A stretch of DNA of 64,000 nt from Escherichia coli. GTDB taxonomy: Bacteria > Pseudomonadota > Gammaproteobacteria > Enterobacterales > Enterobacteriaceae. A model generated the notes under the pieces. That model was given only the letters and a program-made list of their open reading frames with translations. It did not search any database and was not told the origin of the DNA. This document shows, piece by piece, positions 6,406 through 28,036 of the stretch. Numbering within the stretch: the first letter of the stretch is position 1; every line of letters begins with the position of its first letter. The stretch lies in NCBI RefSeq assembly GCF_024223415.1, contig NZ_CP100500.1; one strand, written 5' to 3'. A program made the position numbers and the translations under genes.

Positions 6406-6414
6406 GATAAGAGT

Positions 6415-7212
6415 ATGCTGGCAAAAGATAGGACTAACCTAAAGATTGAAGAAATACGGATGCATAAACATCATGAGATTCACAGGGTTAAGCCTCTTAT
6501 GCCAGCTTTATGTCGTATCCGTCAGGGAAAAAAAATTATCAATTGGGAGACGCATAGTCTAACTGTTGATAATAATCAGATAATATTATTTCCCTGTGGA
6601 TATGAATTTTATATTGCGAATTACCCAGAAGCAGGTCTTTATCTTGCAGAAATGCTTTATTATCCCATTGATCTAATTGAAAAGTTCCAAAATCTTTATG
6701 CGATAACCGATCAAATTCGTAACACGACAGGTTTCTGCTTACCTCAGAATCCCGAGTTAATATATTGTTGGGAGCAACTAAAAACATCTATTTCCCGAGG
6801 CTTCTCAACGCAAATTCAGGAACACTTAGCAATGGGCGTTCTACTTTCATTAGGAGCACATCATGTTAATTGTTTACTTTTATCAGATAGTAAACAATCA
6901 TTAATAAGTCGTTGTTATAACCTAATGCTATCCGAACCTGGAACAAAATGGACAGCAAACAAGGTAGCGAGATATCTCTACATTTCTGTTTCCACATTGC
7001 ATCGCCGTCTGGCAAGCGAGGGAGTAAGTTTTCAAAGTATATTGGACGACGTGAGGTTAAATAATGCGTTGTCTGCTATACAAACGACAGTAAAACCCAT
7101 CAGCGAGATTGCCAGGGAAAATGGTTACAAGTGTCCTTCTCGTTTTACTGAAAGGTTCCATAATCGTTTTAAGATAACACCAAGAGAGCTAAGAAAAGCG
7201 TCCAGAGAGTAA
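6415..7212 (+). CDS. ybcM: AraC/XylS-family transcriptional regulator (265 aa), YbcM-like
   Basis: ORF track; C-terminal AraC-type HTH region ([27 protein letters not shown]...[19 protein letters not shown]). Confidence 0.7.
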
Positions 7213-7503
7213 AAGTATTTTATGAAGGAGCAACAGCATAGATTTTTATTTTGGAAAATAAATACGGCATACTCAACCTATTGGAGCCTGAACAATCCGG
7301 TGACTTCTGCGCTAATCGGGGACGTTTATAAGCACATATAATTGATACTATCTTCCTCCATCACAATTTCAGAAATGCACGTGTGATTTTTTTGCATCCG
7401 GCGTTTGGACTATGTGGAGTTCAAGAGTGGGAAAGTTACAAGAGGTTGAGGGGATAATTAAAGGGATGCTTATGACATTAGATATCCGGATAGGTACGGA
7501 TAT

Positions 7504-7543
7504 CGTTGTTATTAAATCTAGTTCGTTGTTATTAAATCTAGTT
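7504..7543. repeat. Perfect tandem direct repeat, 2 x 20 bp (cgttgttattaaatctagtt)
   Basis: Read directly in sequence within the AT-rich non-coding stretch. Confidence 0.85.
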
Positions 7544-8175
7544 TATACGTTAAGATGCAGCTACAGCAGAAATTGCCACTGTTAATTTTTTCATCGTGAG
7601 CCTTTTATTTGAACTATTATTTAAAAATGATGTCACTGCACTACAAATATTCATCCAATCAATGAGATTATTTCAAGATGTAAGTTTTAGTTTCTCATTT
7701 AAATTGTGAAGTAGATCCCTATCTTTATCTGAACTGTTTCTATTGCACACAATGCATGACTATTTTGTGAACGAATATAAATTTGGTAGTTAAATTATAT
7801 TAAAGGTTGTTATTTATGATTGACTCATAATTTATTTATTTAATTTAAATAGCCTAGAAATAACCATGGAAATTATTTGCATGATGTTTGTTTAGATTTA
7901 TTAATGTAATTGAGGTGGTTTTATTTAATACGCAATATAGCGCCGCTTGATATTAGTTCTATTTTTTTTGCGTAAGATAGATGAGACAAACTGAGACGCA
8001 TAATGGTTTGCAAGGCTCTAATACTTTGATGTTGAGGATGTGATGGGGCATGTACGGGGCATAGTACAATGATGTCCATGCTGGTGTAGATAATCTCCAG
8101 GCTTATCCGGTGCGCCGTAAAACCCCGTCCTTCAGGGCAGGGATATAAGGCGTGGTTTTCCACCTGACCAGGTGT

Positions 8176-8595
8176 TTGCTGTTGTTCAATGTATTGGCGG
8201 ATGACGGATATTGGCGCACCTCCGCAGCTACTGGCAAAATAGCCAGGACTCCACAAAACGCCTTTGTAGTAATACCTGACTGCAATATCTGGTCGATCTC
8301 GTCGCAGTCACCTACCCGATACGCCTTTGAGGCTGTTTACCAGACTGGATATCGCCAGTTTGGGAGGATAGTTAATTAACAAATGGACGTGATCTGGTTC
8401 GCCATCCATTTCAACCAGTTCAGCTTCAAAATCAGCACATACATTTGAAAAGTAAGTGCGTAGTTTTTCTGTCGCGTCATGGTCAAAAATCTGACGTCGG
8501 TATCTGGTGACAAAGACCAGGTGAACATGCATCAGGAAAACACAATGCCTTCCACGCCGGATATCGGTTTCTTTTTTCACAGACCAAAGTATCAT
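8176..8595 (-). pseudogene. tnpA: IS200/IS605 Y1 transposase TnpA, disrupted (split over two frames)
   Basis: ORF 8308..8595 carries the HVHLL HuH motif; conserved WSPGYFASSCGGAPISVIRQYIEQQ is in another frame (ORF 7921..8256) and reads through without a nearby stop. Confidence 0.7.
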
Positions 8596-8602
8596 TTGGC
8601 CT

Positions 8603-9811
8603 GTGAAACGACTACAAGCATTTAAATTCCAGTTAAGACCCGGTGGTCAACAGGAGCGTGAAATGAGGCGCTTCGCAGGCGCATGTCGTTTCGTTTTCAA
8701 TCGTGCTCTGGCACGTCAGAATGAGAATCATGAGGTCGGTAATAAATACATCCCTTACGGGAAAATGGCTTCCTGGCTGGTTGAGTGGAAAAATGCCACT
8801 GAAACGCAATGGCTTAAAGATGCCCCGTCACAGCCATTGCAACAGTCACTGAAAGACCTTGAGCGGGCTTACAAAAACTTCTTCCAGAATCGGGCTGCTT
8901 TTCCCCGATTCAAAAAGCGGGGACAGAATGATGTATTCCGCTACCCGCAGGGCGTTAAGCTCGATCAGGAAAACAGCCGTATTTTTCTGCCGAAACTGGG
9001 CTGGATGCGCTACCGGAACAGCCGTCAGGTCACGGGTGTTGTGAAAAATGTCACTGTCAGCCAGTCCTGCGGTAAGTGGTACATCAGTATTCAGACAGAA
9101 AGTGAAGTATCAACTCCGGTTCACCCTTCAGCATCAATGGTCGGGCTGGATGCTGGCGTGGCTAAACTCGCCACGCTGTCAGATGGCACAGTCTTTGAGC
9201 CTGTAAACAGTTTTCAGAAAAACCAGAAGAAGCTGGCGAGACTTCAGCGACAGTTAAGCCGCAAGGTCAAATTCAGCAACAACTGGCAGAAGCAGAAACG
9301 CAAAATACAGCGACTGCATTCCTGTATCGCAAATATCCGCAGGGACTACCTTCACAAAGTCACAACGACCGTCAGCAAAAACCACGCAATGATAGTCATT
9401 GAGGATTTGAAGGTCAGCAACATGTCAAAGTCAGCAGCGGGTACGGTCAGCCAGCCGGGGCGCAATGTCCGGGCAAAATCAGGTTTAAACCGTTCGATAC
9501 TGGATCAGGGCTGGTATGAAATGCGCCGCCAGCTTGAGTACAAGCAGCTCTGGCGTGGCGGTCAGGTGCTTGCTGTTCCGCCAGCGTACACAAGCCAGCG
9601 TTGCGCGTGCTGTGGTCATACAGAGAAAGAAAACCGCCTGTCACAAAGTAAATTCAGATGCCAGGTATGTGGATATACAGCGAACGCCGATGTAAATGGC
9701 GCTCGTAACATTTTAGCGGCGGGGCACGCCGTTCTTGCCTGTGGAGAGATGGTGCAGTCAGGCCGCCCGTTGAAGCAGGAACCCACCGAAATGATTCAGG
9801 CGACAGCCTGA
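8603..9811 (+). CDS. tnpB: TnpB (IS605 OrfB family) RuvC-like RNA-guided endonuclease (402 aa), apparently intact
   Basis: ORF track; N-terminal [13 protein letters not shown]; Ruv[19 protein letters not shown], RuvC-II IEDLKV, zinc finger CACCGH...CQVCG, Ruv[13 protein letters not shown]. Confidence 0.9.
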
Positions 9812-9850
9812 ACGTAGCAGGGATCCTCGTCCTTCAGGGCGTGGAGGATG

Positions 9851-10522
9851 TCAACAAACAGGTTGAATTAACTCCGCGCCCTGGTTTTTGACATTACCTA
9901 CCGCGCGCGATACCGGGTGCCAGGTGAACTGGTTTGCTGGCACACAGCCGTTGGTAGCAATTTCTGATGCTTCTTTACCGCCAATCTCTTGCCGCATCCA
10001 TTCCTGTGCAGCTTCTGGCGACAGAACCAGCGGGCGGCGGTCATGAATATCTACCAGACCCTGGTCTGCTGCTGCAGTGACAATTAAAAATCCTTCGGCT
10101 TCGTCACCGCGCTCAAACGGTGTGCTACCTATCGCGGCCATAAAAACAGGTTGTCCATCAGCGCGATAGATAAAATAAGGCTGTTTTTTGTCGCCTTCTT
10201 TTTTCCACTCAAACCAGCCATCGGCAAAACAGATTGCCCGACCATGTTGCCAGAGCGGTTTAAACATACGACTGGTGGCCGCAGTTTCTACGCGGGCGTT
10301 AATCAGCGGCGGTTTATCCCACCATCCGGGAGCATATCCCCAGAAAACCGGATCCAGATGAAGGTGTTCATCACGTTCACTGAGCAGAAGAACTTTGGTT
10401 CCCGGCGCGACGTTGTATCTGCCAATGGGTTCGGGATCGTAGGGAATATCGCGTTCAATATCTTCCGCGAGAAGCGCAAGGTAATCTTCACGCGTTTGGG
10501 ATTGGGCAAAGCGTCCACACAT
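9851..10522 (-). CDS. yedK: SOS-response-associated peptidase (SRAP) YedK, abasic-site processing protein
   Basis: ORF track; MCGRFAQSQTREDYLALL with the catalytic Cys2 start typical of SRAP proteins. Confidence 0.9.
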   Translation of the reverse strand: MCGRFAQSQTREDYLALLAEDIERDIPYDPEPIGRYNVAPGTKVLLLSERDEHLHLDPVFWGYAPGWWDKPPLINARVETAATSRMFKPLWQHGRAICFADGWFEWKKEGDKKQPYFIYRADGQPVFMAAIGSTPFERGDEAEGFLIVTAAADQGLVDIHDRRPLVLSPEAAQEWMRQEIGGKEASEIATNGCVPANQFTWHPVSRAVGNVKNQGAELIQPVC

Positions 10523-10628
10523 AGAAACCTCCTGAGATCATACTGAAAAGAATAGGAGAGGGGGCGGGTAAAATCTATGTGTCAGAGGCAACGATGTTCC
10601 CGCTGTGGGCCACAGCGGGAATGAGGGA

Positions 10629-10862
10629 TTACTTCTGAATTAAATAACGAATGGTCGGCCCGTCTTGCTGAATATCCAGCACCGTATAGCCGTGATTACG
10701 CGCATCCAGTGGAATATTATTGATCGACTGTGGACAGTCGCTCACCACTTCCAGGATTTCCCCTTTTTTTAACTGCGGCATCGCCTCAAGAGTTGCGACT
10801 GCCGGATAAGGGCAGGGTTCACCCACCATATCAAGGCGGTAATCAGGAACGATATTTTTCAT
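10629..10862 (-). CDS. yedF: TusA-like sulfurtransferase family protein YedF (77 aa)
   Basis: ORF track; CPYP motif (MVGEPCPYPAV). Confidence 0.9.
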   Translation of the reverse strand: MKNIVPDYRLDMVGEPCPYPAVATLEAMPQLKKGEILEVVSDCPQSINNIPLDARNHGYTVLDIQQDGPTIRYLIQK

Positions 10863-12064
10863 GCGATCTCCTTAGCAGTCTGCGGTGCCGCACGGCGGAA
10901 GAAGCGTTTTTCCCAGCCGATAATCAACATCAGCGCAGTAAACAACAGCAAATATGTCACCAGCAGGCCACCCATCGGGCCAAAGGTTTTCAGCAGGTTG
11001 ATTTTGTCCCAGTCGGTGGCCAGCGCCGGAGCGAAATCATCCCAGTAATACGCCAGAATCGTCGAGCCGATCACATTGCCCAGACCGACCCACCAGTAGT
11101 GCACCTGGCCTTCTACCGCGCGGTACATCCAGCCGGTTTCGCAGCCGCCTGCCAGCACGATGCCAAAACCAAACAGTAAACCACCAATTACCGCGTTTGG
11201 TCCCGCCCACATGATTTTGGGTTCAACGCCTAACTGTACGTAACTGAAGATCCCGATGGCACTCACCGCCATACCGATAATGATTGCTTTCGCCATATGG
11301 GTACGTCCGGTGATCCACATATCGCGGAACGCCGAAGTAAAGCAGATTTGCGCACGTTCAATCAGTAAACCAAAGCCGACGCCAAACAGCATTGCCAGCC
11401 CCAGTTTGGGTTGGTTCATCGCCGTGAGCAGCGCCCAGCCCAGCATGCCGAAAAAGACCAGCATCCCGAGACGAAAACGACGCCGCGCCTGATCCGGTTT
11501 TTGCGTCAGCGGTGAGGCGGCAGAAACTTTCTGCATTTTCACGGGAATACGGAAGATGGGCAGCAGGGTAAAGCGCGCGCCAAACCATGAACCAATGGCC
11601 GTGGCGATGGCAAAGAACCAGGCATGCAGCGAGAACTGAGGAATGCCGGTAAAGAACGCCGCCAGGTTACAGCCCATTGCCAGACGCGCGCCAAAACCGG
11701 CGATAATGCCGCCAATAATGGCCTGCATAATGCGGATACGGCTGCGCGGCATGCGCAGTTTGACATTGTTGGCCCACAGCGCTGCGGCAAAGCAGCCGCC
11801 AAACATGCCGAGGATCATCATCCCGTCGATGCGGGTTAATGGCGATCCTTCCAGATGGATAATTTTAAAATAACCCCACTCTTCAGCATGGACGCCAAAC
11901 AGCTGCAGGAGCTGACCGCCCCAACGGGTAAATTCACCCGTGACAGCCCAAAAGGTGCCAGTAATGCCAAAATAGTAAGTGGAGAGAATACCCGCCGCGA
12001 TGACCGCAGGGATGGGTGCCCAGAATTTAATCAACCAGGCGTGTTTGAATTGCTGCCATGACAT
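10859..12064 (-). CDS. yedE: Inner-membrane selenium/sulfur-compound transporter family protein YedE (401 aa)
   Basis: ORF track; polytopic membrane protein; overlaps yedF start by 4 nt. Confidence 0.9.
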   Translation of the reverse strand: MSWQQFKHAWLIKFWAPIPAVIAAGILSTYYFGITGTFWAVTGEFTRWGGQLLQLFGVHAEEWGYFKIIHLEGSPLTRIDGMMILGMFGGCFAAALWANNVKLRMPRSRIRIMQAIIGGIIAGFGARLAMGCNLAAFFTGIPQFSLHAWFFAIATAIGSWFGARFTLLPIFRIPVKMQKVSAASPLTQKPDQARRRFRLGMLVFFGMLGWALLTAMNQPKLGLAMLFGVGFGLLIERAQICFTSAFRDMWITGRTHMAKAIIIGMAVSAIGIFSYVQLGVEPKIMWAGPNAVIGGLLFGFGIVLAGGCETGWMYRAVEGQVHYWWVGLGNVIGSTILAYYWDDFAPALATDWDKINLLKTFGPMGGLLVTYLLLFTALMLIIGWEKRFFRRAAPQTAKEIA

Positions 12065-12247
12065 GAATGTAGCCTCTGAACTCAGAAGGTTTGAAACAAG
12101 AATCGCGAATCATACATCATGCAAATTTATTTTCGGGGTAATAATTCACAAAAATAATAGTTAGATCAAATTTCTCTCTGAACCTGGAAAGGCTGGCGAT
12201 ATCAGGGCTTTAATGCCACAATCCTCTTTTCTTCTCATGCAGGACGA

Positions 12248-12664
12248 ATGATGAAAAAACTCGCAATTGCAGGCGCGCTCATGTTGCTGGCGGGCTGTGC
12301 CGAAGTCGAAAACTATAACAATGTCGTGAAAACCCCCGCGCCGGACTGGCTGGCGGGCTACTGGCAGACCAAAGGGCCGCAACGTGCGCTGGTCAGTCCG
12401 GAAGCGATAGGCAGCCTGATTGTCACTAAAGAGGGCGATACCCTGGATTGCCGTCAGTGGCAGCGGGTGATTGCCGTGCCGGGCAAGTTGACATTGATGT
12501 CTGATGATCTCACTAACGTTACCGTAAAACGTGAGCTGTACGAGGTTGAGCGTGACGGTAACACCATTGAGTACGATGGTATGACGATGGAGCGTGTGGA
12601 TCGCCCGACGGCAGAGTGTGCCGCCGCGCTGGATAAAGCGCCGTTACCGACGCCACTGCCGTAA
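12248..12664 (+). CDS. yedD: Lipoprotein YedD
   Basis: ORF track; lipobox LLAGC in signal peptide. Confidence 0.85.
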   Translation: MMKKLAIAGALMLLAGCAEVENYNNVVKTPAPDWLAGYWQTKGPQRALVSPEAIGSLIVTKEGDTLDCRQWQRVIAVPGKLTLMSDDLTNVTVKRELYEVERDGNTIEYDGMTMERVDRPTAECAAALDKAPLPTPLP

Positions 12665-12671
12665 TGAAATC

Positions 12672-12691
12672 TCCCCGGCTTGCCGCCGGGG
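12672..12691. terminator. Bidirectional hairpin between convergent yedD and amyA
   Basis: tccccggc-ttgc-gccgggga inverted repeat. Confidence 0.55.
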
Positions 12692-12697
12692 ATGAAT

Positions 12698-14185
12698 TTA
12701 AATCACCTCTTCGATAACCCACACGCTGACGCTGCCGCCGTTGCAAAAGAAGGTCGCTTCGCCGTTTTCGTCGGTCACTACGCTCTCTTGCCGATTCCCC
12801 AGAAAATCACGCCAGGTTTTATTGCCGTAATTCTCTCCCAGATGAATGGTTTTTTCGCCATCATCCCCGTTCGACATGACCACCACGCAGCCGGGATATT
12901 CGTCAGTGCCACTGCGACTAAAGGCAATGCAGTTCGGATGGTCGAAAAATAACGTCTGTACACCGTGGGCGAAACGCTGACGGGCGAGAATTAACTCATC
13001 AAGCTGTTCGATTATTGGCATATCTATCGGATAGGTTTGCCCGTCACCACCGACATCTTCGTAATGCGCACCGTAGAGGTCCGGATAGAATACCGAAGGA
13101 ACGCCATTTTCCCGCAACAAAATTAAGGTATACGCCAGCGGTTTAAACCACGGTTCGACCGGCGCTTCGAGGGCTTGCAACGGTTGGGTGTCGTGATTGG
13201 CAACGAGCGTCACGGCGTGGAAAGGATCGGCTTCCACTAATGTACCCGTGAAAATCTGCGTCATGTCGTAGTCGCGCCCCATGCGCGATGCTTCATGGAA
13301 TTTCATCTGCAGCGGCGCATCGAACAGCATGGTTTTGCCTTCCACCTGATCAATATACGTTTGCAGTTTATCGACTTCATGCGACCAGTACTCCGCCACA
13401 ATAAACAGCGGCTTTGGCGCAACTTCCTGTACGTGTTCGATCCACTCTTTATAAAACCACGCCGGAATATGTTTGACCGCATCAAGACGAAAACCGTCGC
13501 ATTGTGTTTGTTCCATCACCCAGCGCGCCCAGTATTTAATCTCTTCCGTCACGGCATGATTGCGGAAATCGATATTCTCACCCATCAGATAATCGAAATT
13601 ACCGAGTTCATCATCAACCTGATCGTTCCAGCCTTCACCGGTGTAGTCGTTAACAATTTTAAAAATGCCATCTTCATCAGGGTTTTCGATATGGTCGATA
13701 CCGCTAAAACATTTGAAATCCCAGATAAACTGCGAGTATTGCCCGGCACGGGCGGGGAAGGTGTAACGCGTCCAGCCTTCGCACTCTATGATTTCTTCGT
13801 CAATTTGCGTACGGTCATCAGCATTTACACGCTGCACGCGAATAGCTTCTTTTTCATCCGCGCCCATTTTGTGGTTGACTACCACGTCCAACAGCACCGC
13901 AATGTCATTACGTTTCAGAGCGTCAATGGCGGCCAGCAGTTGTGCTTTATCGCCATATTTAGTAGGGATGCTGCCTTTCTGATCAAACTCGCCTAAATCA
14001 AATAAATCATAGGAGTCGTAGCCGACCGAATACCCGCCCGATGCGCCTTTATAGGCGGGCGGCAACCAGACCATATTGATACCAATATCATTAAAACCGT
14101 CGGCGCGCTCGGCCAGTTCAGGCCAGAGCTTACCGCCTTCCGGGTAATACCAGTGAAAACATTGTAACAGCGTGGGATTACGCAT
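12698..14185 (-). CDS. amyA: Cytoplasmic alpha-amylase (495 aa)
   Basis: ORF track; [23 protein letters not shown]13 motifs. Confidence 0.95.
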
Positions 14186-14262
14186 TCTTCGACTCCATTC
14201 AAGGGGAACATTAGAAGCGTAGCCGTAATCGGATTATTCGCGAGCCATCGACTCGTTCAGAT

Positions 14263-14628
14263 TCAAAAGAGGTTATCCTGCGGAGCCAGCACAAAGCCGC
14301 CCTGATCGCCATAGGCACTTAACACCGATTTTTGCACCGATGACTGACCGACCAGTTTCGCCAGTTCATCCATCCGAATCTGTAATAACTGCTTTACCTT
14401 GCTTTCGTTGTCGAGAATCAGGCGCAGCATCGGGCGGAGCTGCTCCTGCATCGTGGTGGACGGGTCAATCTCTTCAGTCAGATGTGCAATCTCCTGCACC
14501 GCATTCACATACGCCATTTCGCTGGCGATGAGTTCTTCCCATTGTTCTTCCGTTGCCAGGCGTAACATGAGCTGGCTTTTTTCGACGAGTTGTTGCCAGG
14601 CGAAATACAAATGCGGTGCATGGTTCAT
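14263..14628 (-). CDS. fliT: Flagellar export chaperone / FlhDC anti-activator FliT
   Basis: ORF track; position after fliS. Confidence 0.9.
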
Positions 14629-15038
14629 CAGACTGGGTCCTGAATCAAAGAAGGGGAGAGTAACGACTCTTTCCAGGCATCGGCAATATTACGCATTAAT
14701 GCTTCCACTTCTTCGACTGCGGAGACATCGTTGCGTAAATTGGCTTGCAGCAAGCGCCTGACCATATAGCTATAAAGAGCAATCAAGTTTTGGGTTAATT
14801 CGTCTTTGCTCTCTTCATCAAGACTCACCCGCAGTCCGTTCTCAATGATGTTGATCGCTTTTGACAAAGAGACGCCTTTGCCTTGCTGATTGTTGTCCTG
14901 CATAAACAGGCGCGCTCTAACCAGTGCGCTCAGCACTCCATCAAATAGCATGGTGACCAGCTGCTGCTGGCTGGCGCTCATTACGGCGCTTTCGACGCCA
15001 ATTTGTGCATAGGCTTTTGAGCCGCTCGCGGTATACAT
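14628..15038 (-). CDS. fliS: Flagellin-specific export chaperone FliS
   Basis: ORF track; position between fliD and fliT. Confidence 0.9.
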
Positions 15039-15052
15039 GCTGACCTCCGTGA

Positions 15053-16465
15053 TCAGGAATTACTCATTGCAGTAAATTGTTGGCTGAGATAGGTACTGGT
15101 GTTATTCAGTTTGCTCATCATGGTATCTAATTGCGTAAACTGTGCAGTGTAACGCGCCACGGTGTCATCAATGCTGGCACTGACGGATAGATACTGTTTG
15201 GTTAGTTTTTTCAGTGTGGCGTTAATACTGTCCTGTGCGCTATCAATAATGCCATCATCGGCAAGGTAACCTTTTACCTCGGTGGCAATTTTGGTGGTAA
15301 TTCCTGTTTCTTTACCATCGCCTACCAGCAATTCACGTACGGATGCTGTATTTTCATTCAGGACTTTTTTGAGTTTATCATCATCAATTTTCAGCTTACC
15401 CGTCGTGCCGTCCTGCTTAATCCCGATCTCGTTTAATGTTTTGAAGGCACCGTCGCTGGCACCGTTTGCAAATTGTGCGCGGATGCCGCTTTGAATTGTA
15501 CGTACAACGCTGTCTCCGAGAAGTGCACCATTATTTTTATCTTGTGCTTCAGCACCTGGGTCTACTTCTTTATATTTTGTCAGGGTGTTAAAGGTGTCAA
15601 TGAGGGAGTTATATGAATCCACCCAGCCTTTAATTGCTTCGGTTGCTTTATCGTTGCTTTTTGTCACAGTGACCCGGACGTCAGTGACTTTTTTGGTCAA
15701 ATCGAGAGTCACTCCCTGAGGAGCATCGGTAATTTTGTTACTTGAACGTTCAATATCGATACCGTTAACGTTTAGCTGTGCATTTTGCGCGTTAACCAGT
15801 TCCTTCATATTCCCGGTGTTGGTCTTGCTGTCATAAGCCAGCAGATCATTTAATTTACTGTCACCCTCAACAGATATGGTCATTTTATTGGCCAGACCTT
15901 CACTGGCGGTCAATACCAATTGATAGTCACCATCTTTGACTTTAACGATACTAGCGGAAATTCCACTATCGGCATCGTTAATGGTTTTGCTGATCTCATC
16001 CAATGACGTCTGATCTTTATTGAGCTTGATTTCCAGCGGCTCTTTACGGCCGTCTTGGGTAATTTTTATTGTGCGTGTATCTGATGACTCATCACCCAGT
16101 GCATCTTTTGTTGATGCAATGATTGTCGGGGAATCAGTTCGTAAAGATTGCGCCTGCGCCAGTTGGGTTACGCTGATGGTATAGATACCGGGGGCAGCAC
16201 CTGCTTCGGTGGAAACTTTAAGGTCTTCATTGCTACTGGTAACGGTAGTGCTTTTGAACAGATCGGCTTTATTTAACGCAGTATTTGCAGTCTGGAATTT
16301 TTCTAATGCACTTTTTAATGTGCCATAGGCTGTCAGACGTGCGGTGTTGTCACTCTGTTGCTGAGTAATTGGGTTTAAGCGTTTTTTTTCAGCGATGGTC
16401 AGGTTGTTTAGCAATGTATCCAGCGGCAGATTCGAACCAACGCCAAGAGATGTAAATGAAGCCAT
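15053..16465 (-). CDS. fliD: Flagellar filament cap protein FliD
   Basis: ORF track 15053..16543; chosen start MASFTSLGVGSNLP has an upstream aggaa SD; earlier in-frame ATG would run through the promoter. Confidence 0.9.
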   Translation of the reverse strand: MASFTSLGVGSNLPLDTLLNNLTIAEKKRLNPITQQQSDNTARLTAYGTLKSALEKFQTANTALNKADLFKSTTVTSSNEDLKVSTEAGAAPGIYTISVTQLAQAQSLRTDSPTIIASTKDALGDESSDTRTIKITQDGRKEPLEIKLNKDQTSLDEISKTINDADSGISASIVKVKDGDYQLVLTASEGLANKMTISVEGDSKLNDLLAYDSKTNTGNMKELVNAQNAQLNVNGIDIERSSNKITDAPQGVTLDLTKKVTDVRVTVTKSNDKATEAIKGWVDSYNSLIDTFNTLTKYKEVDPGAEAQDKNNGALLGDSVVRTIQSGIRAQFANGASDGAFKTLNEIGIKQDGTTGKLKIDDDKLKKVLNENTASVRELLVGDGKETGITTKIATEVKGYLADDGIIDSAQDSINATLKKLTKQYLSVSASIDDTVARYTAQFTQLDTMMSKLNNTSTYLSQQFTAMSNS

Positions 16466-16503
16466 ACCTAATTCCTTTTGATTGCAAACAGTAGATAAGC
16501 GGG

Positions 16504-16530
16504 TTATCGGCAATTTGTGCGCAAAGTTTA
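16504..16530 (-). promoter_or_regulatory. sigma28 (FliA) promoter for fliDST
   Basis: Minus-strand TAAA-N15-GCCGATAA read from sequence. Confidence 0.75.
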
Positions 16531-16623
16531 ATAGTTGATTCACGAAGATGATGCGCAGAGTAGAGTTGTATATTACGGATATTTCAGCCGTTAAGAAAAA
16601 ACAGGAGAGAAACTAAAATTTTC

Positions 16624-16650
16624 TAAAGTTCGAAATTCAGGTGCCGATAC
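16624..16650 (+). promoter_or_regulatory. sigma28 (FliA) promoter for fliC
   Basis: TAAA-N15-GCCGATAC read from sequence upstream of fliC. Confidence 0.75.
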
Positions 16651-16719
16651 AAGGGGTACGGTGAGAAACCGTGGGCAACAGCCCAATAACATCAAGTTGT
16701 AATTGATAAGGAAAAGATC

Positions 16720-18180
16720 ATGGCACAAGTCATTAATACAAACAGCCTGTCGCTGTTGACCCAGAATAACCTGAACAAATCTCAGTCTTCTCTTGGCTCT
16801 GCTATTGAGCGTCTCTCTTCTGGCCTGCGTATTAACAGTGCTAAAGATGACGCAGCAGGTCAGGCGATTGCTAACCGTTTTACGGCAAATATTAAAGGTC
16901 TGACTCAGGCTTCCCGTAACGCGAATGATGGTATTTCTGTTGCGCAGACTACTGAAGGTGCGCTGAATGAAATTAACAACAACCTGCAGCGTGTACGTGA
17001 ACTGACTGTTCAGGCAACTAACGGTACTAACTCTGACAGCGATCTTTCTTCTATTCAGGCAGAAATTACTCAACGTCTGGAAGAAATTGACCGTGTATCT
17101 GAGCAAACTCAGTTTAACGGCGTGAAAGTCCTTGCCGAAAATAATGAAATGAAAATTCAGGTTGGTGCTAATGATGGGGAAACCATCACTATCAATCTGG
17201 CAAAAATTGATGCGAAAACTCTCGGCCTGGACGGCTTTAATATCGATGGCGCGCAGAAAGCAACTGGCAGTGACCTGATTTCTAAATTTAAAGCGACAGG
17301 TACTGATAATTATCAAATTAACGGTACTGATAACTATACTGTTAATGTAGATAGTGGAGCAGTTCAAAATGAGGATGGTGACGCAATTTTTGTTAGCGCT
17401 ACCGATGGTTCTCTGACTACTAAGAGTGATACAAAAGTCGGTGGTACAGGTATTGATGCGACTGGGCTTGCAAAAGCCGCAGTTTCTTTAGCTAAAGATG
17501 CCTCAATTAAATACCAAGGTATTACTTTCACCAACAAAGGCACTGGTGCATTTGATGGCAGTGGTAACGGCACTCTAACCGCTAATATTGATGGCAAAGA
17601 TGTAACCTTTACTATTGATGCGACAGGGAAGGACGCAACATTAAAAACGTCTGATCCTGTTTACAAAAATAGTGCAGGTCAGTTCACTACAACTAAGGTT
17701 GAAAACAAAGCCGCTACAGCATCGGATCTGGACTTAAATAACGCTAAAAAAGTGGGTAGTTCTTTAGTTGTAAATGGCGCTGATTATGAAGTTAGCGCTG
17801 ATGGTAAGACAGTAACTGGGCTTGGTAAAACTATGTATCTGAGCAAATCAGAAGGTGGTAGCCCGATTCTGGTAAAAGAAGATGCAGCAAAATCGTTGCA
17901 ATCTACTACCAACCCGCTCGAAACCATCGACAAGGCATTGGCTAAAGTTGACAATCTGCGTTCTGACCTCGGTGCAGTACAAAACCGTTTCGACTCTGCT
18001 ATCACCAACCTTGGCAACACCGTAAACAACCTGTCTTCTGCCCGTAGCCGTATCGAAGATGCTGACTACGCGACCGAAGTGTCTAACATGTCTCGTGCGC
18101 AGATCCTGCAACAAGCGGGTACCTCTGTTCTGGCGCAGGCTAACCAGACCACGCAGAACGTACTGTCTCTGCTGCGTTAA
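16720..18180 (+). CDS. fliC: Flagellin (486 aa); conserved N/C termini with variable central H-antigen domain
   Basis: ORF track; MAQVINTNSLSLLTQNNLNKSQ ... QNVLSLLR. Confidence 0.95.
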   Translation: MAQVINTNSLSLLTQNNLNKSQSSLGSAIERLSSGLRINSAKDDAAGQAIANRFTANIKGLTQASRNANDGISVAQTTEGALNEINNNLQRVRELTVQATNGTNSDSDLSSIQAEITQRLEEIDRVSEQTQFNGVKVLAENNEMKIQVGANDGETITINLAKIDAKTLGLDGFNIDGAQKATGSDLISKFKATGTDNYQINGTDNYTVNVDSGAVQNEDGDAIFVSATDGSLTTKSDTKVGGTGIDATGLAKAAVSLAKDASIKYQGITFTNKGTGAFDGSGNGTLTANIDGKDVTFTIDATGKDATLKTSDPVYKNSAGQFTTTKVENKAATASDLDLNNAKKVGSSLVVNGADYEVSADGKTVTGLGKTMYLSKSEGGSPILVKEDAAKSLQSTTNPLETIDKALAKVDNLRSDLGAVQNRFDSAITNLGNTVNNLSSARSRIEDADYATEVSNMSRAQILQQAGTSVLAQANQTTQNVLSLLR

Positions 18181-18222
18181 TTTACACTTATCGCTCAAAC
18201 CCCGCCAACGGCGGGGTTTTTT
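18181..18222 (+). ncRNA. Candidate FliX-type sRNA derived from the fliC 3' UTR
   Basis: Position only (fliC 3' UTR to terminator); based on published 3'-UTR-derived flagellar sRNAs, extent not determinable here. Confidence 0.3.
18198..18222 (+). terminator. Rho-independent terminator of fliC
   Basis: aaaccccgcc-aacg-gcggggtttttt hairpin plus T-run. Confidence 0.8.
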
Positions 18223-18344
18223 CTGTCCGCAATTTACCGGTAACCCCCAAATAACCCCTCATTTCACCCACTAATCGTCCGATTAAAAACCCTGCAGAAA
18301 CGGATAATCATGCCGATAACTCATATAACGCAGGGCTGTTTATC

Positions 18345-19064
18345 GTGAATTCACTCTATACCGCTGAAGGTGTAATGGATAAACACTCGCTGTGGCAGCG
18401 TTATGTCCCGCTGGTGCGTCACGAAGCATTGCGCCTGCAGGTTCGACTGCCCGCGAGCGTGGAACTTGACGATCTGCTACAGGCGGGCGGCATTGGGTTA
18501 CTTAATGCCGTCGAACGCTATGACGCCCTACAAGGAACGGCATTTACAACTTACGCAGTGCAGCGTATACGTGGCGCTATGCTGGATGAACTTCGCAGCC
18601 GTGACTGGGTGCCGCGCAGCGTGCGACGCAACGCGCGTGAAGTGGCACAGGCAATAGGGCAACTGGAGCAGGAACTTGGCCGCAACGCCACGGAAACTGA
18701 GGTTGCGGAACGTTTAGGGATCGATATTGCCGATTATCGCCAAATGTTGCTCGACACCAATAACAGCCAGCTCTTCTCCTACGATGAGTGGCGCGAAGAG
18801 CACGGCGATAGCATCGAACTGGTTACTGATGATCATCAGCGAGAAAACCCGCTACAACAACTGCTGGACAGTAATCTGCGCCAGCGGGTGATGGAAGCCA
18901 TCGAAACGTTGCCGGAGCGCGAAAAACTGGTATTAACCCTCTATTATCAGGAAGAGCTGAATCTCAAAGAGATTGGTGCGGTGCTGGAGGTCGGGGAATC
19001 GCGGGTCAGTCAGTTACACAGCCAGGCCATTAAACGGTTACGCACTAAACTGGGTAAGTTATAA
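18345..19064 (+). CDS. fliA: Flagellar sigma factor sigma28 FliA (239 aa)
   Basis: ORF track; sigma-70 family regions 2 and 4. Confidence 0.95.
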   Translation: MNSLYTAEGVMDKHSLWQRYVPLVRHEALRLQVRLPASVELDDLLQAGGIGLLNAVERYDALQGTAFTTYAVQRIRGAMLDELRSRDWVPRSVRRNAREVAQAIGQLEQELGRNATETEVAERLGIDIADYRQMLLDTNNSQLFSYDEWREEHGDSIELVTDDHQRENPLQQLLDSNLRQRVMEAIETLPEREKLVLTLYYQEELNLKEIGAVLEVGESRVSQLHSQAIKRLRTKLGKL

Positions 19065-19109
19065 CGTCAGTAAATGCCGCACTTTAATTTTGACTACCAG
19101 GAGTTCTTA

Positions 19110-19661
19110 ATGATGGTGCAGCACCTGAAAAGACGGCCATTAAGCCGCTATCTTAAAGACTTTAAACACAGCCAGACTCATTGCGCGCATTGCCGTAAAT
19201 TACTCGATCGCATTACCTTAGTTCGCGACGGCAAAATAGTGAATAAAATCGAGATTTCCCGCCTGGACGCGCTGCTTGATGAAAATGGCTGGCAAACGGA
19301 ACAAAAATCATGGGCGGCATTGTGCCGATTTTGCGGTGATTTACATTGCAAAACGCAGAGTGATTTTTTCGATATTATCGGCTTTAAGCAATTTCTTTTT
19401 GAGCAAACTGAAATGAGCCCAGGTACGGTGCGTGAATATGTCGTTCGTTTGCGCCGTTTGGGGAATCATCTACACGAGCAAAATATTTCCCTCGATCCGC
19501 TGCAGGACGGTTTCCTTGATGAAATCCTCGCCCCGTGGCTGCCCACCACCAGCACCAACAATTACCGCATCGCATTACGGAAGTATCAACACTATCAGCG
19601 TCAAACGTGTACCGGACTTGTGCAGAAATCCTCCAGCCTGCCTGCTTCTGATATATATTAA
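19110..19661 (+). CDS. fliZ: Regulator FliZ (183 aa)
   Basis: ORF track 19074..19661; start at MMVQHLKRRPLSRYLKDFKH. Confidence 0.85.
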   Translation: MMVQHLKRRPLSRYLKDFKHSQTHCAHCRKLLDRITLVRDGKIVNKIEISRLDALLDENGWQTEQKSWAALCRFCGDLHCKTQSDFFDIIGFKQFLFEQTEMSPGTVREYVVRLRRLGNHLHEQNISLDPLQDGFLDEILAPWLPTTSTNNYRIALRKYQHYQRQTCTGLVQKSSSLPASDIY

Positions 19662-19748
19662 ATAAGAATAAGATGTAGCGGAGTTGTTTTTGTGTTTACA
19701 AACAATGGCTCTACACTGCAAACAGACATAACAACATTCGGGGTAAAT

Positions 19749-21640
<1,892 letters not shown>

Positions 21641-21654
21641 CTCCGGGAACGCTC

Positions 21655-22323
21655 ATGCAAGAAAGTATACAACTGGTTATTGATTCCTTGCCGTTCCTGC
21701 TGAAAGGGGCTGGGTATACGCTGCAACTCAGTATCGGCGGCATGTTTTTTGGCTTACTGCTCGGGTTTATTCTCGCGCTGATGCGCCTGTCGCCAATCTG
21801 GCCCGTGCGCTGGCTGGCGCGTTTTTATATCTCTATTTTTCGTGGTACACCGCTCATCGCACAACTGTTTATGATCTATTACGGCCTGCCGCAGTTTGGT
21901 ATCGAATTAGATCCCATTCCGTCAGCAATGATTGGTCTGTCGCTGAACACTGCCGCCTATGCCGCCGAAACACTGCGCGCCGCCATTTCTTCTATTGATA
22001 AAGGTCAGTGGGAAGCAGCTGCCAGTATTGGTATGACGCCATGGCAGACTATGCGTCGCGCGATTTTGCCACAGGCGGCGCGGGTGGCGTTGCCGCCGCT
22101 GTCGAACAGCTTTATCAGCCTGGTAAAGGATACGTCGCTGGCCGCGACAATCCAGGTGCCGGAGCTGTTCCGTCAGGCGCAGTTGATTACCTCGCGCACG
22201 CTGGAGGTGTTCACCATGTACCTGGCGGCTTCGCTCATCTACTGGATCATGGCGACAGTATTATCGACGTTGCAGAACCATTTTGAGAATCAACTTAATC
22301 GCCAGGAGAGAGAACCAAAATGA
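21655..22323 (+). CDS. tcyL: L-cystine ABC transporter permease TcyL/YecS
   Basis: ORF track; polar amino acid ABC permease features. Confidence 0.9.
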   Translation: MQESIQLVIDSLPFLLKGAGYTLQLSIGGMFFGLLLGFILALMRLSPIWPVRWLARFYISIFRGTPLIAQLFMIYYGLPQFGIELDPIPSAMIGLSLNTAAYAAETLRAAISSIDKGQWEAAASIGMTPWQTMRRAILPQAARVALPPLSNSFISLVKDTSLAATIQVPELFRQAQLITSRTLEVFTMYLAASLIYWIMATVLSTLQNHFENQLNRQEREPK

Positions 22324-23072
22324 GTGCCATTGAAGTTAAGAACCTGGTGAAAAAATTTCACGGTCAGACGGTGCTGCACGGTATCGACCTTGAGGTAAAG
22401 CCTGGCGAAGTGGTGGCAATTATCGGTCCGAGTGGTTCCGGCAAAACCACGTTGCTACGCAGCATAAATCTGCTGGAACAACCCGAAGCGGGAACGATCA
22501 CCGTTGGCGATATCACTATTGATACTGCACGTTCATTAAGTCAGCAAAAATCGCTGATTCGCCAGTTGCGTCAGCACGTCGGGTTTGTCTTCCAGAACTT
22601 TAATTTGTTTCCGCATCGTACGGTGCTGGAAAACATTATTGAAGGGCCGGTGATCGTCAAAGGCGAACCGAAAGAAGAGGCCACGGCGCGCGCTCGCGAG
22701 CTGTTGGCGAAAGTTGGGCTGGCCGGTAAAGAAACCAGCTATCCACGTCGTTTGTCTGGCGGTCAACAGCAACGTGTTGCGATTGCACGTGCGCTGGCAA
22801 TGCGTCCTGAGGTGATTTTGTTTGACGAGCCAACGTCGGCGCTGGATCCAGAGCTGGTGGGCGAAGTCCTGAACACCATCCGTCAGCTGGCGCAGGAAAA
22901 GCGCACGATGGTGATTGTGACGCACGAAATGAGCTTTGCCCGGGATGTTGCGGACCGGGCGATCTTTATGGACCAGGGGCGGATAGTCGAGCAGGGGGCC
23001 GCAAAAGCGTTATTTGCCGATCCCGAGCAGCCTCGCACCCGCCAGTTCCTCGAGAAGTTTCTGCTGCAATAA
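22320..23072 (+). CDS. tcyN: L-cystine ABC transporter ATP-binding protein TcyN/YecC
   Basis: ORF track; Walker A GPSGSGKTT, signature LSGGQQQRV. Confidence 0.9.
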   Translation: MSAIEVKNLVKKFHGQTVLHGIDLEVKPGEVVAIIGPSGSGKTTLLRSINLLEQPEAGTITVGDITIDTARSLSQQKSLIRQLRQHVGFVFQNFNLFPHRTVLENIIEGPVIVKGEPKEEATARARELLAKVGLAGKETSYPRRLSGGQQQRVAIARALAMRPEVILFDEPTSALDPELVGEVLNTIRQLAQEKRTMVIVTHEMSFARDVADRAIFMDQGRIVEQGAAKALFADPEQPRTRQFLEKFLLQ

Positions 23073-23301
23073 TAAGAAAAAATCAGCCCCGACGATTCAC
23101 CTGTCGGGGCTGGACGCCATTTCAAGCCTGATAAAACTGCTTAACAAATCAGCATAACTCATTAATAACATAAGAGAATGCGATGGCTTGCAAAAGTAAT
23201 TCATTGCCTGAATAATATAAATTATATATAAATCTTATTTATGTGATAGTTTGAATTATCATTATAAATGATACTCACTCTCAGGGGCGTTGCGGTTTAC
23301 T

Positions 23302-24024
23302 ATGCAGGATAAGGATTTTTTCAGCTGGCGTCGCACGATGCTGTTGCGTTTTCAGAGGATGGAGGCCGCAGAAGAGGTCTACCATGAAATAGAGTTTCAG
23401 GCTCAGCAGCTGGAGTACGATTACTATTCGTTATGTGTTCGCCACCCGGTACCATTCACGCGACCTAAAGTGGCTTTCTACACCAATTACCCTGAGGCGT
23501 GGGTTAGTTATTATCAGGCAAAAAACTTTCTCGCAATTGATCCGGTGCTGAACCCTGAAAACTTTAGTCAGGGCCATTTAATGTGGAATGATGACTTATT
23601 CAGCGAAGCACAGCCGTTATGGGAAGCCGCGCGCGCACATGGTTTACGCCGCGGTGTCACTCAGTATTTAATGCTGCCAAACCGGGCGCTGGGCTTTTTG
23701 TCCTTTTCCCGTAGCAGCGCGCGCGAAATACCCATTCTTAGTGATGAACTGCAATTAAAAATGCAGTTACTGGTGCGCGAAAGTCTGATGGCTCTGATGC
23801 GTTTAAATGATGAAATAGTGATGACGCCAGAGATGAATTTCAGCAAGCGCGAAAAAGAAATTTTGAAATGGACGGCGGAAGGGAAGACATCAGCAGAGAT
23901 AGCGATGATTTTGTCAATCTCTGAGAATACGGTCAATTTCCATCAGAAAAACATGCAGAAAAAAATCAATGCACCAAATAAGACCCAGGTTGCCTGTTAC
24001 GCGGCCGCTACTGGCTTAATTTGA
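23302..24024 (+). CDS. sdiA: LuxR-family quorum-sensing regulator SdiA (240 aa)
   Basis: ORF track 23290..24024; start MQDKDFFSWRRTMLLRFQ; C-terminal LuxR HTH. Confidence 0.9.
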   Translation: MQDKDFFSWRRTMLLRFQRMEAAEEVYHEIEFQAQQLEYDYYSLCVRHPVPFTRPKVAFYTNYPEAWVSYYQAKNFLAIDPVLNPENFSQGHLMWNDDLFSEAQPLWEAARAHGLRRGVTQYLMLPNRALGFLSFSRSSAREIPILSDELQLKMQLLVRESLMALMRLNDEIVMTPEMNFSKREKEILKWTAEGKTSAEIAMILSISENTVNFHQKNMQKKINAPNKTQVACYAAATGLI

Positions 24025-24051
24025 TCGCTTTTCTTTCTGCGTGCCAGATGC

Positions 24052-24090
24052 AAAAACCGGCTGAAAGGCACGCTATCAGCCGGTTTTATA
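24052..24090. terminator. Bidirectional terminator between sdiA and yecF
   Basis: aaccggctga...tcagccggtt inverted repeat flanked by A/T runs. Confidence 0.6.
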
Positions 24091-24315
24091 TTACTGACGG
24101 TAGGCTTGTTTAATTTGCTTAACCGTTTTGGAAAATACTGCAGCCTGGGTTTCGTCTTCGATCAGCGCAAGCTGTTTTTCCATCTTTAACATCACGCGGC
24201 CCGCGTCAGCTTGTCCCATCGCCTGTAGCATCAGCGTCAGCATCGCTTTCAGGCAGGAGACTTCATTTGCCAGTTCTTGATTATTCTCGGCAGTAGAAAA
24301 ATCAGGCGTACTCAT
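24091..24315 (-). CDS. yecF: Small protein YecF (74 aa)
   Basis: ORF track; conserved position next to sdiA. Confidence 0.8.
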
Positions 24316-24480
24316 TTATTTTCCTCGTCATGTTGCAATGAAAATTTGCGGTGAAAAATGTTAAGGCGGCGGAGTATACCATAAGCTTTGCTAAAAATAG
24401 CAGTGGTTGTTTTTTGAGCGTGATATCGGCAGTGCTATAAAATACGTTAATATAATGACCAATTAGGTAATGACTCCAAC

Positions 24481-24984
24481 TTACTGATAGTGTTTTATGT
24501 TCAGATAATGCCCGATGACCTTGTCATGCAGCTCCACCGATTTTGAGAACGACAGTGACTTCCGTCCCAGCCTTGCCAGATGTTGTCTCAGATTCAGATT
24601 ATGTCGCTCAATGCGCTGAGTGTAACGCTTGCTGATAACGTGCAGCTTTCCCTTCAGGCGTGATTCATACAGCGGCCAGCCATCCGTCATCCATACCACG
24701 ACCTCAAAGGCCGACAGCAGGCTCAGAAGACGCTCCAGTGTGGCCAGAGTGCGTTCACCGAAGACGTGCGCCACAACCGTCCTCCGTATCCTGTCATACG
24801 CGTAAAACAGCCAGCGCTGACGTGATTTAGCACCGACGTAGCCCCACTGTTCGTCCATTTCAGCGCAGACAATCACATCACTGCCCGGTTGTATGCGCGA
24901 GGTTACCGACTGCGGCCTGAGTTTTTTAAGTGACGTAAAACCGTGTTGAGGCCAACGCCCATAATGCGTGCACTGGCGCGACAT
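24481..24984 (-). CDS. insB: IS1 InsB (transposase C-terminal part)
   Basis: ORF track 167 aa. Confidence 0.9.
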
Positions 24985-25178
24985 CCGACGCCATTCATGG
25001 CCATATCAATGATTTTCTGGTGCGTACCGGGCTGAGAGGCGGTGTAAGTGAACTGTAGTTGCCATGTTTTACGGCAATGAGAGCAGAGATAGCGCTGATG
25101 TCCGGCAGTGCTTTTGCCGTTACGCACCACGCCTTCAGTAGCGGAGCAGGAAGGACATCTGATGGAAATGGAAGCCAC
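24903..25178 (-). CDS. insA: IS1 InsA (91 aa)
   Basis: ORF track; zinc-finger [28 protein letters not shown]. Confidence 0.9.
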
Positions 25179-25550
25179 GCAAGCACCTTAAAATCACCAT
25201 CATACACTAAATCAGTAAGTTGGCAGCATTACCGACCAATTAATATTTTTATCATGAATGTTTTTTGCCCGTATTGTTCGGGTTAATTAATGTTACATAT
25301 TCAGCGGGCTGATTTTCATTTTTGCTGAATAAAGTCAATTTTTGTCACATTTCATCGTAGGGCTTACTGTGAAACGATCCGGTAAGCCGTTGGTGACGGG
25401 CGTGACCATAACTGTGGACAATCGAATTGACAAAAACGAGAGAAAAATCGAATACCCACCATTTTTAACGTTTCAAAGTTGCAATAAAAACCGCTAATAT
25501 ACGAATGACTAACTATCAGTAGCGTTATCCCTATTTCTGGAGATATTCCT

Positions 25551-26207
25551 TTGATCAACGTTCTACTTGTTGATGACCACGAACTGGTGCGCGCAGGGAT
25601 ACGACGCATTCTGGAAGATATAAAGGGTATAAAAGTCGTCGGTGAGGCATCGTGCGGTGAAGACGCCGTTAAGTGGTGCCGGACAAATGCCGTTGACGTG
25701 GTGCTAATGGACATGAGTATGCCGGGCATTGGCGGTCTTGAGGCGACGCGTAAAATCGCGCGTTCCACAGCTGATGTCAAAATCATCATGCTTACCGTCC
25801 ATACAGAAAACCCTTTACCAGCGAAAGTCATGCAGGCCGGTGCTGCGGGCTACCTCAGCAAAGGCGCGGCTCCGCAGGAAGTCGTGAGTGCGATTCGTTC
25901 TGTCTATTCAGGGCAGCGTTACATTGCTTCTGACATCGCTCAACAAATGGCGTTAAGCCAGATCGAACCAGAAAAAACAGAAAGCCCATTTGCCAGTTTG
26001 TCTGAACGTGAATTGCAGATTATGCTGATGATCACCAAGGGCCAGAAGGTCAATGAGATCTCAGAACAGCTCAATCTCAGTCCGAAAACGGTGAACAGCT
26101 ACCGCTATCGTATGTTCAGTAAACTAAACATTCATGGCGATGTTGAGCTGACTCACCTGGCAATTCGCCATGGTCTGTGTAATGCGGAGACATTATCAAG
26201 TCAGTGA
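25551..26207 (+). CDS. uvrY: Response regulator UvrY (BarA/UvrY two-component system)
   Basis: ORF track; receiver domain plus LuxR-type HTH. Confidence 0.95.
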
Positions 26208-28036
26208 GTGATCAGTTTGACGCAAAAGCGTTTTTAAAAACCGTAACCAGCCAGCCAGGCGTTTATCGCATGTACGATGCTGGTGGTACGGTTATCTATG
26301 TCGGCAAAGCGAAAGACCTGAAAAAACGGCTTTCCAGCTATTTCCGTAGCAACCTCGCTTCGCGCAAAACCGAAGCGCTGGTCGCCCAGATCCAGCAAAT
26401 TGATGTAACGGTTACTCATACAGAAACCGAAGCGCTGTTGCTGGAACACAACTACATCAAACTCTATCAGCCGCGTTACAACGTTTTGCTACGCGATGAT
26501 AAATCTTATCCTTTTATCTTCCTGAGTGGCGATACCCACCCGCGTCTGGCGATGCATCGTGGTGCGAAGCATGCCAAAGGTGAATATTTCGGCCCGTTCC
26601 CGAATGGCTATGCCGTACGTGAAACACTGGCGCTACTGCAAAAGATTTTCCCCATTCGCCAGTGCGAAAATAGTGTTTATCGCAATCGCTCGCGTCCGTG
26701 TCTGCAATATCAGATAGGGCGCTGTCTGGGACCGTGCGTTGAAGGACTGGTGAGTGAAGAAGAATACGCTCAGCAGGTCGAGTATGTGCGCCTGTTTTTG
26801 TCTGGCAAAGATGATCAGGTGCTTACGCAACTCATTAGTCGTATGGAAACTGCCAGCCAGAATCTGGAGTTTGAAGAAGCGGCACGTATTCGCGACCAAA
26901 TTCAGGCGGTGCGACGCGTCACCGAAAAACAGTTTGTTTCCAATACCGGCGACGACCTTGACGTTATTGGTGTGGCGTTCGATGCGGGCATGGCTTGTGT
27001 CCACGTATTGTTCATTCGTCAGGGCAAAGTGCTCGGCAGCCGCAGCTATTTCCCGAAAGTGCCTGGCGGTACGGAACTGAGCGAGGTGGTAGAAACCTTC
27101 GTAGGTCAGTTCTATTTACAAGGCAGCCAGATGCGCACCTTACCGGGTGAGATCCTGCTCGATTTTAATCTTAGCGATAAAACGCTGCTCGCCGATTCCC
27201 TTTCAGAACTGGCGGGACGCAAGATTAATGTTCAAACCAAACCTCGCGGCGATAGGGCGCGTTATCTGAAACTCGCGCGCACCAATGCGGCGACGGCCTT
27301 AACCAGCAAACTTTCGCAGCAATCTACCGTTCACCAGCGACTGACCGCGCTTGCCAGCGTGTTGAAATTGCCGGAAGTGAAGCGGATGGAGTGCTTTGAC
27401 ATCAGCCATACCATGGGCGAACAAACCGTCGCTTCCTGTGTGGTGTTTGATGCTAACGGCCCGCTGCGTGCGGAGTATCGGCGCTATAACATTACAGGCA
27501 TCACGCCGGGCGATGATTATGCGGCGATGAATCAGGTGCTGCGTCGGCGTTATGGTAAAGCCATTGACGACAGTAAGATCCCGGATGTGATCCTTATCGA
27601 CGGCGGCAAAGGCCAGCTTGCGCAGGCGAAAAATGTCTTCGCCGAACTGGATGTCTCATGGGATAAAAATCATCCGCTGCTACTTGGCGTTGCCAAAGGA
27701 GCAGATCGTAAGGCTGGACTGGAAACGCTGTTCTTTGAGCCGGAAGGTGAGGGATTTAGTTTGCCGCCAGATTCACCCGCGCTGCATGTTATCCAGCATA
27801 TTCGCGATGAATCACATGATCACGCGATTGGCGGGCACCGTAAAAAACGGGCGAAGGTCAAAAATACCAGTTCCCTGGAAACCATTGAAGGCGTCGGGCC
27901 AAAACGTCGGCAAATGTTGTTGAAATATATGGGCGGTTTGCAAGGTTTACGTAACGCCAGCGTCGAGGAAATTGCAAAAGTGCCGGGTATTTCGCAAGGT
28001 CTGGCAGAAAAGATCTTCTGGTCGTTGAAACATTGA
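26204..28036 (+). CDS. uvrC: Excinuclease ABC subunit C (610 aa)
   Basis: ORF track; GIY-YIG N-terminus ([23 protein letters not shown]); overlaps uvrY stop. Confidence 0.95.

Follow-up and report, generated by a model that had tools for sequence, protein, structure and literature searches.

The 64,000-nt stretch of Escherichia coli DNA analysed here (the window) carries an intact fliC gene, the allele of which we assign with high confidence to antigen type H27. The same high confidence applies to our best explanation as a whole, which comprises the intact fliC middle, the H27 allele, the domain layout and recombination. The open reading frame is uninterrupted over 486 codons. Over its full 1461 nt, the gene was 99.7-99.9% identical to fliC of 27 complete E. 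coli genomes, among them the O128:H27 strain 90-9281 and strains JE86-ST02 and JE86-ST05. Papers on MS-H mention H27 without giving its sequence. The serotype labels of these public genomes are the source of the assignment, and at least the JE86 labels are sequence-derived, as the JE86 strains were typed O86:H27 from fliC sequence (PMC7366661). In these named H27 strains (protein WP_000079825.1), the gene occupies the same locus, encodes the same number of residues and is identical at 1458 of 1461 nt; H27 strains also share the fliD allele and the flanking block with the window. The window allele differs from the common H27 allele by three nucleotides and two residues, at 16795 (S26G), 17546 (D276G) and 17826 (synonymous). 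Gly276 is also present in strain a7. The exact FliC protein is already public on 183 contigs; both allele and gene are ordinary and already known.

The central 751 nt of fliC were at least 99% identical in 29 of 5426 complete E. coli genomes and 95-99% identical in 4, which represent an H27 sub-variant with a four-residue insertion (ASSA) after residue 299. The next class, and next best type, stood at 78%, in line with the original prediction that this region sets the H type. That class, which includes NCTC9041, is 91% identical to H8, and it is probably H40 by the H8/H40 pairing, since H40 has been named as the partner of H8 (PMC7018530). Among labelled records, the central nucleotide identity to the window was 76% for H8, 75% for H21 and 74% for H11.

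The locus is the standard E. coli flagellar region III, with the chromosomal context of fliC preserved: fliT, fliS (14628-15038) and fliD lie divergently on the minus strand, fliC, fliA (18345-19064), fliZ and tcyJ follow on the plus strand, and a promoter-like site of the sigma-28 type precedes fliC (Table 1). This site has two mismatches to the TAAAGTTT-N11-GCCGATAA consensus. The fliD promoter-like site comes from a scan of the window that gave 2 matches where 0.03 were expected. A perfect copy of TAAAGTTT-N11-GCCGATAA is located at 47383-47409, directly upstream of tar (47420-49102). Downstream of the gene, the terminator hairpin begins 16 nt after the fliC stop codon (18181-18219), and the hairpin alone is common to the window and K-12. 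In K-12, the fliC 3′UTR, annotated as the 195-nt sRNA FliX, separates the stop codon from the terminator (K-12 locus L005, 9913-10107). The FliX sequence is therefore mostly absent in this fliC class. An Rfam search of 14000-20000 returned no match, which leaves the fliC 3′UTR outside every curated RNA family. No second flagellin gene (flkA, fllA, flmA or flnA) was seen in the stretches that were examined or aligned to annotated a7 loci, which make up only part of the 64-kb window; these genes are alternative E. coli flagellin loci able to set the serotype (PMC7018530).

Table 1. Features of the fliD-fliC region, in window coordinates.
Feature	Coordinates	Strand	Basis or remark
fliC, 486-aa flagellin, H27 allele	16720..18180 (incl. 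stop codon)	+	ATG-started ORF, Pfam, nt identity to H27-labelled genomes
Residues 1-198, N-terminal D0/D1 helices and D1 beta-hairpin region	16720..17313	+	Alignment, dS, model
Residues 194-209, GTDNYQIN-GTDNYTVN motif, two adjacent beta-strands	17299..17346	+	Sequence, alignment, model
Residues 199-313, H27-specific core of variable region	17314..17658	+	Alignment, dS/dN
Residues 314-364, outer-domain segment, anciently diverged yet protein-conserved	17659..17811	+	dS/dN
Residues 365-399, outer-domain end and right-hand transition into conserved end	17812..17916	+	dS 0.15-0.23, alignment
Residues 400-486, C-terminal D1/D0 helices	17917..18177	+	Pfam, alignment
fliC promoter-like site, sigma-28 (FliA) class-3 type, TAAAGTTC-N11-GCCGATAC	16624..16650	+	Consensus match only
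fliC intrinsic terminator, strong hairpin	18197..18219	+	K-12 homology picks up again here
fliD, filament cap	15053..16465	-	Co-varies with this fliC class; belongs to diverged block
fliD sigma-28 promoter-like site, TAAACTTT-N11-GCCGATAA	16504..16530	-	Consensus scan

The gene product is a bacterial flagellin of the FliC/FljB family, as both helical Pfam domains and the beta-rich outer insert are present. Flagellin_N (PF00669) covered residues 5-142 (E = 5e-45), Flagellin_C (PF00700) residues 400-485 (E = 1e-31), and the flagellin beta-sheet domain (PF22370) was found at residues 288-384. In flagellins, the middle part of the chain is exposed on the filament surface and antigenic, as is known from flagellin structure and H serotyping. 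We built an AlphaFold model of the monomer from an 11-sequence alignment. The model contained helices at residues 7-38, 45-101 and 106-129 and a beta-rich middle at about 178-391, with pLDDT of 85-94 over about residues 180-390; the terminal helices had modest pLDDT, as expected for a monomer. All top Foldseek matches were flagellins. The best was 3V47_C (TM 0.69 on the target, E = 6e-25), a flagellin of Salmonella Dublin solved in complex with TLR5; structures of flagellar filaments came next. Residues ~176-399 are thus predicted to form the variable beta-rich outer domains (D2/D3).

The original prediction had placed a central variable flagellin domain at 17150-17900. This interval corresponds to residues 144-394, between the two helical domains, and the Pfam hits, the beta-rich model and the Foldseek match to 3V47_C all agree with that placement; the predicted length, shorter than K-12 FliC, is also right (486 versus 498 residues). 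The flanking ends are indeed conserved as the Pfam helical domains, but the proposed limit at about residue 140 was too short, as conservation reaches about residue 175 against K-12 and residue 198 within the closest family. The truly type-specific stretch in the alignment is residues 199-313, and residues 314-399 are partly conserved. The centre (residues 143-399) is richer in Thr, Gly, Asp, Ser and Asn taken together, as had been claimed (49% versus 42% in the N-terminal and 39% in the C-terminal end), but Ser and Asn individually are below the ends; Thr (12.8%), Gly (12.1%) and Asp (9.7%), plus Lys, account for the enrichment.

Short repeats had also been described in the centre. The repeat GTDNYQINGTDNYTVN is real, with halves that match at 14 of 15 positions at the DNA level with 24-nt spacing, but it is the sole adjacent repeat and not part of an array; Tandem Repeats Finder detected no repeat array in fliC. 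Only two pentapeptides, GTDNY and IDATG, recur in the centre; in composition-preserving shuffles, at least two recurring pentapeptides appeared in 1.3% and at least one in 10%. The two-strand motif GTDNYQINGTDNYTVN is also present in H21 and, in a weaker form, in H8, H40, H11 and Salmonella (Berta), and AlphaFold modelled it as a beta-hairpin with strands at residues 193-200 and 204-209. Being shared across types and modelled as a hairpin, it is better regarded as a conserved structural motif, and we rejected a fresh duplication as its origin.

Compared with K-12, divergence is not confined to the centre of fliC. The high-divergence block extends from the fliS/fliD junction (~15040) to the fliC terminator (~18197), with nucleotide identities of 54-62% in fliD and 70-84% in the fliC ends, an unalignable fliC centre, and 98-100% in the flanking genes. 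K-12 FliC (H48) has the same locus, function and flagellin fold, whereas the proteins are only 51% identical overall. By this alignment, the diverged unit is the whole fliD-fliC block, not just the fliC centre. With 70-84% identity in the fliC ends versus 98-100% in the flanks, the “conserved” ends fall short of the conservation seen in the genome background. Across the 5426 genomes, the classes are discrete: 862 have a fliD at least 95% identical to this one, and in the remainder it can hardly be aligned. For the first 426 nt of fliC, identity was at least 95% in 608 genomes, 90-95% in 114 and ~80% in the others.

The types H27, H40 (probable), H8, H21 and H11 form a family. These types share with the window the fliD class, the promoter region and the outer-domain architecture; they hardly differ in fliD and at the ends of fliC, and differences are confined to residues 199-364. 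Residues 1-198 have 98-99% amino acid identity (1-4 substitutions), residues 400-486 are 100% identical, and dS in the ends is 0.03-0.13. The centre can be aligned over its entire length at 74-78% nucleotide identity, whereas residues 199-313 are only 58-65% identical in amino acid sequence, with saturated synonymous divergence, and the serotypes are distinct. For these residues, comparison with H40-like, H8, H21 and H11 sequences gave dS of 0.8-1.6, dN of 0.29-0.38 and dN/dS of 0.24-0.34. Residues 314-364 retain 82-88% amino acid identity within the family even though dS is saturated (≥ 2), with dN/dS of 0.05. High dS with low dN/dS in residues 199-364, against low dS in the ends, points to the centre as an old, selectively maintained allele segment. 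We therefore read the fliC centre as an old segment lying between ends homogenised by recombination, and not as a fast-mutating patch.

The original prediction also described this region as a hotspot of horizontal exchange, which agrees with what we found among H27 genomes of differing backgrounds. For seven of them, originating from a variety of hosts and continents, mismatches to the window were counted per 500 nt. A shared block around fliC had 0-2 mismatches per 500 nt, as opposed to 5-17 per 500 nt (1-3%) in its flanks. The block starts at ~10000 (13500 in TW01221) and ends at ~18500, 19500, 20500 or 21000, depending on the strain. Such a near-identical block with strain-specific breakpoints is the mark left by a fliC-containing segment that spreads through recombination. 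The window matches 90-9281, E7476 and ECCHD184 as far as ~21000. Strain a7 (L001) is near-identical to the window at 1-18500 and 25500-33000 and ~2% different at 18500-24400. The alignments also suggest a further recombination patch over fliA to sdiA.

Other elements vary elsewhere in the window. An IS1 of 768 bp (24466-25233), with 23-nt terminal inverted repeats, lies in the 5′ end of yecU, upstream of uvrY, and is bordered by a 9-nt target duplication, GACCAATTA, at 24457-24465 and 25234-25242; it is absent from the yecU site in all genomes compared across that site. A variable island between fliE and yedK (~5170-9810) contains emrE, ybcL, a ybcM-like ORF (6415-7212), a degraded IS200/IS605 tnpA and an intact-looking ORF for a 402-aa TnpB/InsQ (8603-9811). 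The island is present in a7, SWYHX138, ECCHD184 and the H8 strain, and absent from K-12, 90-9281, E7476 and JE86-ST05.

Outside E. coli, the closest relatives of the block were found in Salmonella. The amino acid identity of FliD was 83% to g-complex Salmonella and 76% to S. Typhimurium, versus 50-51% to K-12. The FliC C-terminus was 85-89% identical to the Salmonella FliC sequences versus 71% to K-12, and the N-terminus was 91% identical to the g-complex allele versus 85% to K-12. We do not regard the N-terminal end as clearly Salmonella-like, as residues 1-175 are equally near S. Typhimurium FliC and K-12 (149 versus 148 of 175) and nearer only to the g-complex allele. The K-12 fliD-fliC block is equally distant from the window block and from Salmonella. 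FliS (the flagellin chaperone) and FliT (the FliD export chaperone) are of the E. coli type, with 63% and 31% identity, respectively, to Salmonella (window 14263-16465 versus Salmonella L018 5549-7745), and the change of class coincides exactly with the fliS/fliD junction.

In S. enterica g-complex FliC (S. Dublin 3V47 chain C; S. Berta FLIC_SALBE), the locus is syntenic and the ends are 85-91% identical to the window protein. 3V47_C is also the sole solved structure with a sequence-similar outer domain (E = 1e-23, 97 of 224 residues identical). The centre, however, has only 43-44% amino acid identity to the window and therefore represents a different antigen; FLIC_SALBE is longer (508 aa), and Salmonella has fliB between fliC and fliA, whereas the window does not. 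Membership of the g-complex would call for a near-identical centre with SNP-level variation; at 43-44% identity, the window FliC is a homologue of that group and not a member. In a HMMER search of 1.84 billion representative proteins, only 15 clusters matched the outer domain, which shows that the outer-domain family is narrow; FLIC_SALBE (44%) and a flagellin of Citrobacter freundii (42%) were among the full-length matches. A word-indexed protein search was uninformative, as most of its matches were truncated pieces of E. coli flagellins. When central-domain peptides were compared with representative genomes of 100,044 species, no other species with the domain was found. Apart from two matches that fell in the conserved first 35 residues, that scan gave a single 3.5-kb contig assigned to a Collinsella bin. 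The contig (L007, JAIJJM010000335.1), from a metagenome-assembled genome of Collinsella sp., encodes a flagellin centre 75% identical to H27, and we take it to be a mis-binned E. coli fragment.

Three other explanations have to be weighed against, or alongside, the H27 reading. The allele might represent another H type, or a new one, within the same family (H21, H8, H40 or H11), as the ends are identical family-wide, the fliD is the same, the lengths are similar (486-492 aa), H21 too carries the GTDNYQINGTDNYTVN motif, and serological cross-reaction inside the family is conceivable. Yet the identity of the centre to those types, 74-78% at the nucleotide level against at least 99.8% to H27-labelled genomes, together with the low amino acid identity of residues 199-313, makes this extremely improbable. 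The central domain, or the whole fliD-fliC block, could also have been acquired recently from a different genus, for instance Salmonella or Citrobacter. The G+C content of the block (41-45% versus ~50% in the flanks) would fit an import, as would the closer resemblance that FliD, the ends of FliC and its centre bear to Salmonella compared with K-12; the nearest central domains outside E. coli are those of the Salmonella g-complex and C. freundii. The synonymous divergence from Salmonella, however, is either saturated or no lower than that of the flanking orthologues: pS is 0.77 in fliD and dS is 0.84-1.35 in the fliC ends, whereas fliA, tcyJ, dcyD and amyA range from 0.76 to saturated. Moreover, the centre is only 43% identical to Salmonella, and no representative genome of another species has a close copy, the Collinsella-binned contig being the sole match. 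As synonymous sites against Salmonella are saturated, we rejected recent intergeneric transfer, which we consider very unlikely. The comparison favours instead an old lineage, probably shared with Salmonella. A more specific proposal is that the H27/H8/H11/H21/H40 fliD-fliC block would be the vertically inherited counterpart of the Salmonella g-complex-type block, a trans-species allele lineage in ~11-16% of E. coli genomes, with the far more divergent K-12-type block as an outgroup to both and with fliS and fliT of the E. coli type; we hold this tentatively, at somewhat less than even confidence. According to PMC7018530, E. coli and Salmonella have no form of the hypervariable region in common, which is compatible with the 43% identity.

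The third explanation qualifies the H27 reading and does not exclude it. Transcription of the class 2 and class 3 flagellar genes requires FlhD4C2. In the window, flhC (42289-42866) lacks one G of a GGG run at ~42353/42354 (CACCCTGGGCGCT → CACCCTGGCGCT), and the reading of FlhC consists of 22 native codons, then 12 out-of-frame codons and a stop. The H27 fliC would then be intact but silent: the frameshifted flhC would yield no FlhD4C2, fliA and the class-3 genes would be off, and the strain would be non-motile (H-). A truncation after only 22 native codons argues for this, as does the report that O86:H27 isolates with this fliC are non-motile (PMC7366661). In addition, ORFs that are frameshifted in the nearest relative a7 (ybcL, tar) are intact in the window, which speaks against a generally error-prone assembly; fliA is intact as well. 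On the other hand, a sequencing error can also remove a single base from a short homopolymer, and the exact same flhC stretch in five other complete E. coli genomes may reflect either an artefact or a mutation that recurs. Translation restarting inside the gene, at 42363, would also give a predicted N-terminally truncated FlhC of 167 aa. We consider silencing and its absence about equally probable. Given the flhC frameshift, it is doubtful whether this strain expresses the flagellin; should the deletion be real, the H27 antigen may not be produced, and the strain may be H27 by genotype only.

Under the H27 reading, the N- and C-terminal helices (D0/D1) would build the filament core, and residues ~176-399 would form beta-rich D2/D3 domains on the filament surface that presumably are exposed and antigenic and carry the type-specific epitopes. 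The H27-specific part would lie mainly in residues 199-313, with a predicted link to the epitopes. The diversity represents old allelic variation and not fast mutation, and it is probably kept by selection for rare types, for which host immunity or phage are the putative agents. Homologous recombination moves fliC-containing blocks between lineages, usually with fliD along.

For strain typing, the H27 genotype call is useful, given that H27 is found in enterotoxigenic, enteroaggregative and Shiga-toxin-producing lineages, e.g. O86:H27 (PMC7366661); with a broken flhC, such a call can mislead on phenotype. The unit that recombines and has diverged is fliD plus fliC, extending beyond the fliC centre, and allelic age, as opposed to accelerated substitution, accounts for the “hypervariability” of fliC. 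If the proposed common descent with the Salmonella g-complex-type block is true, E. coli maintains fliD-fliC haplotype classes that predate the E. coli-Salmonella split.
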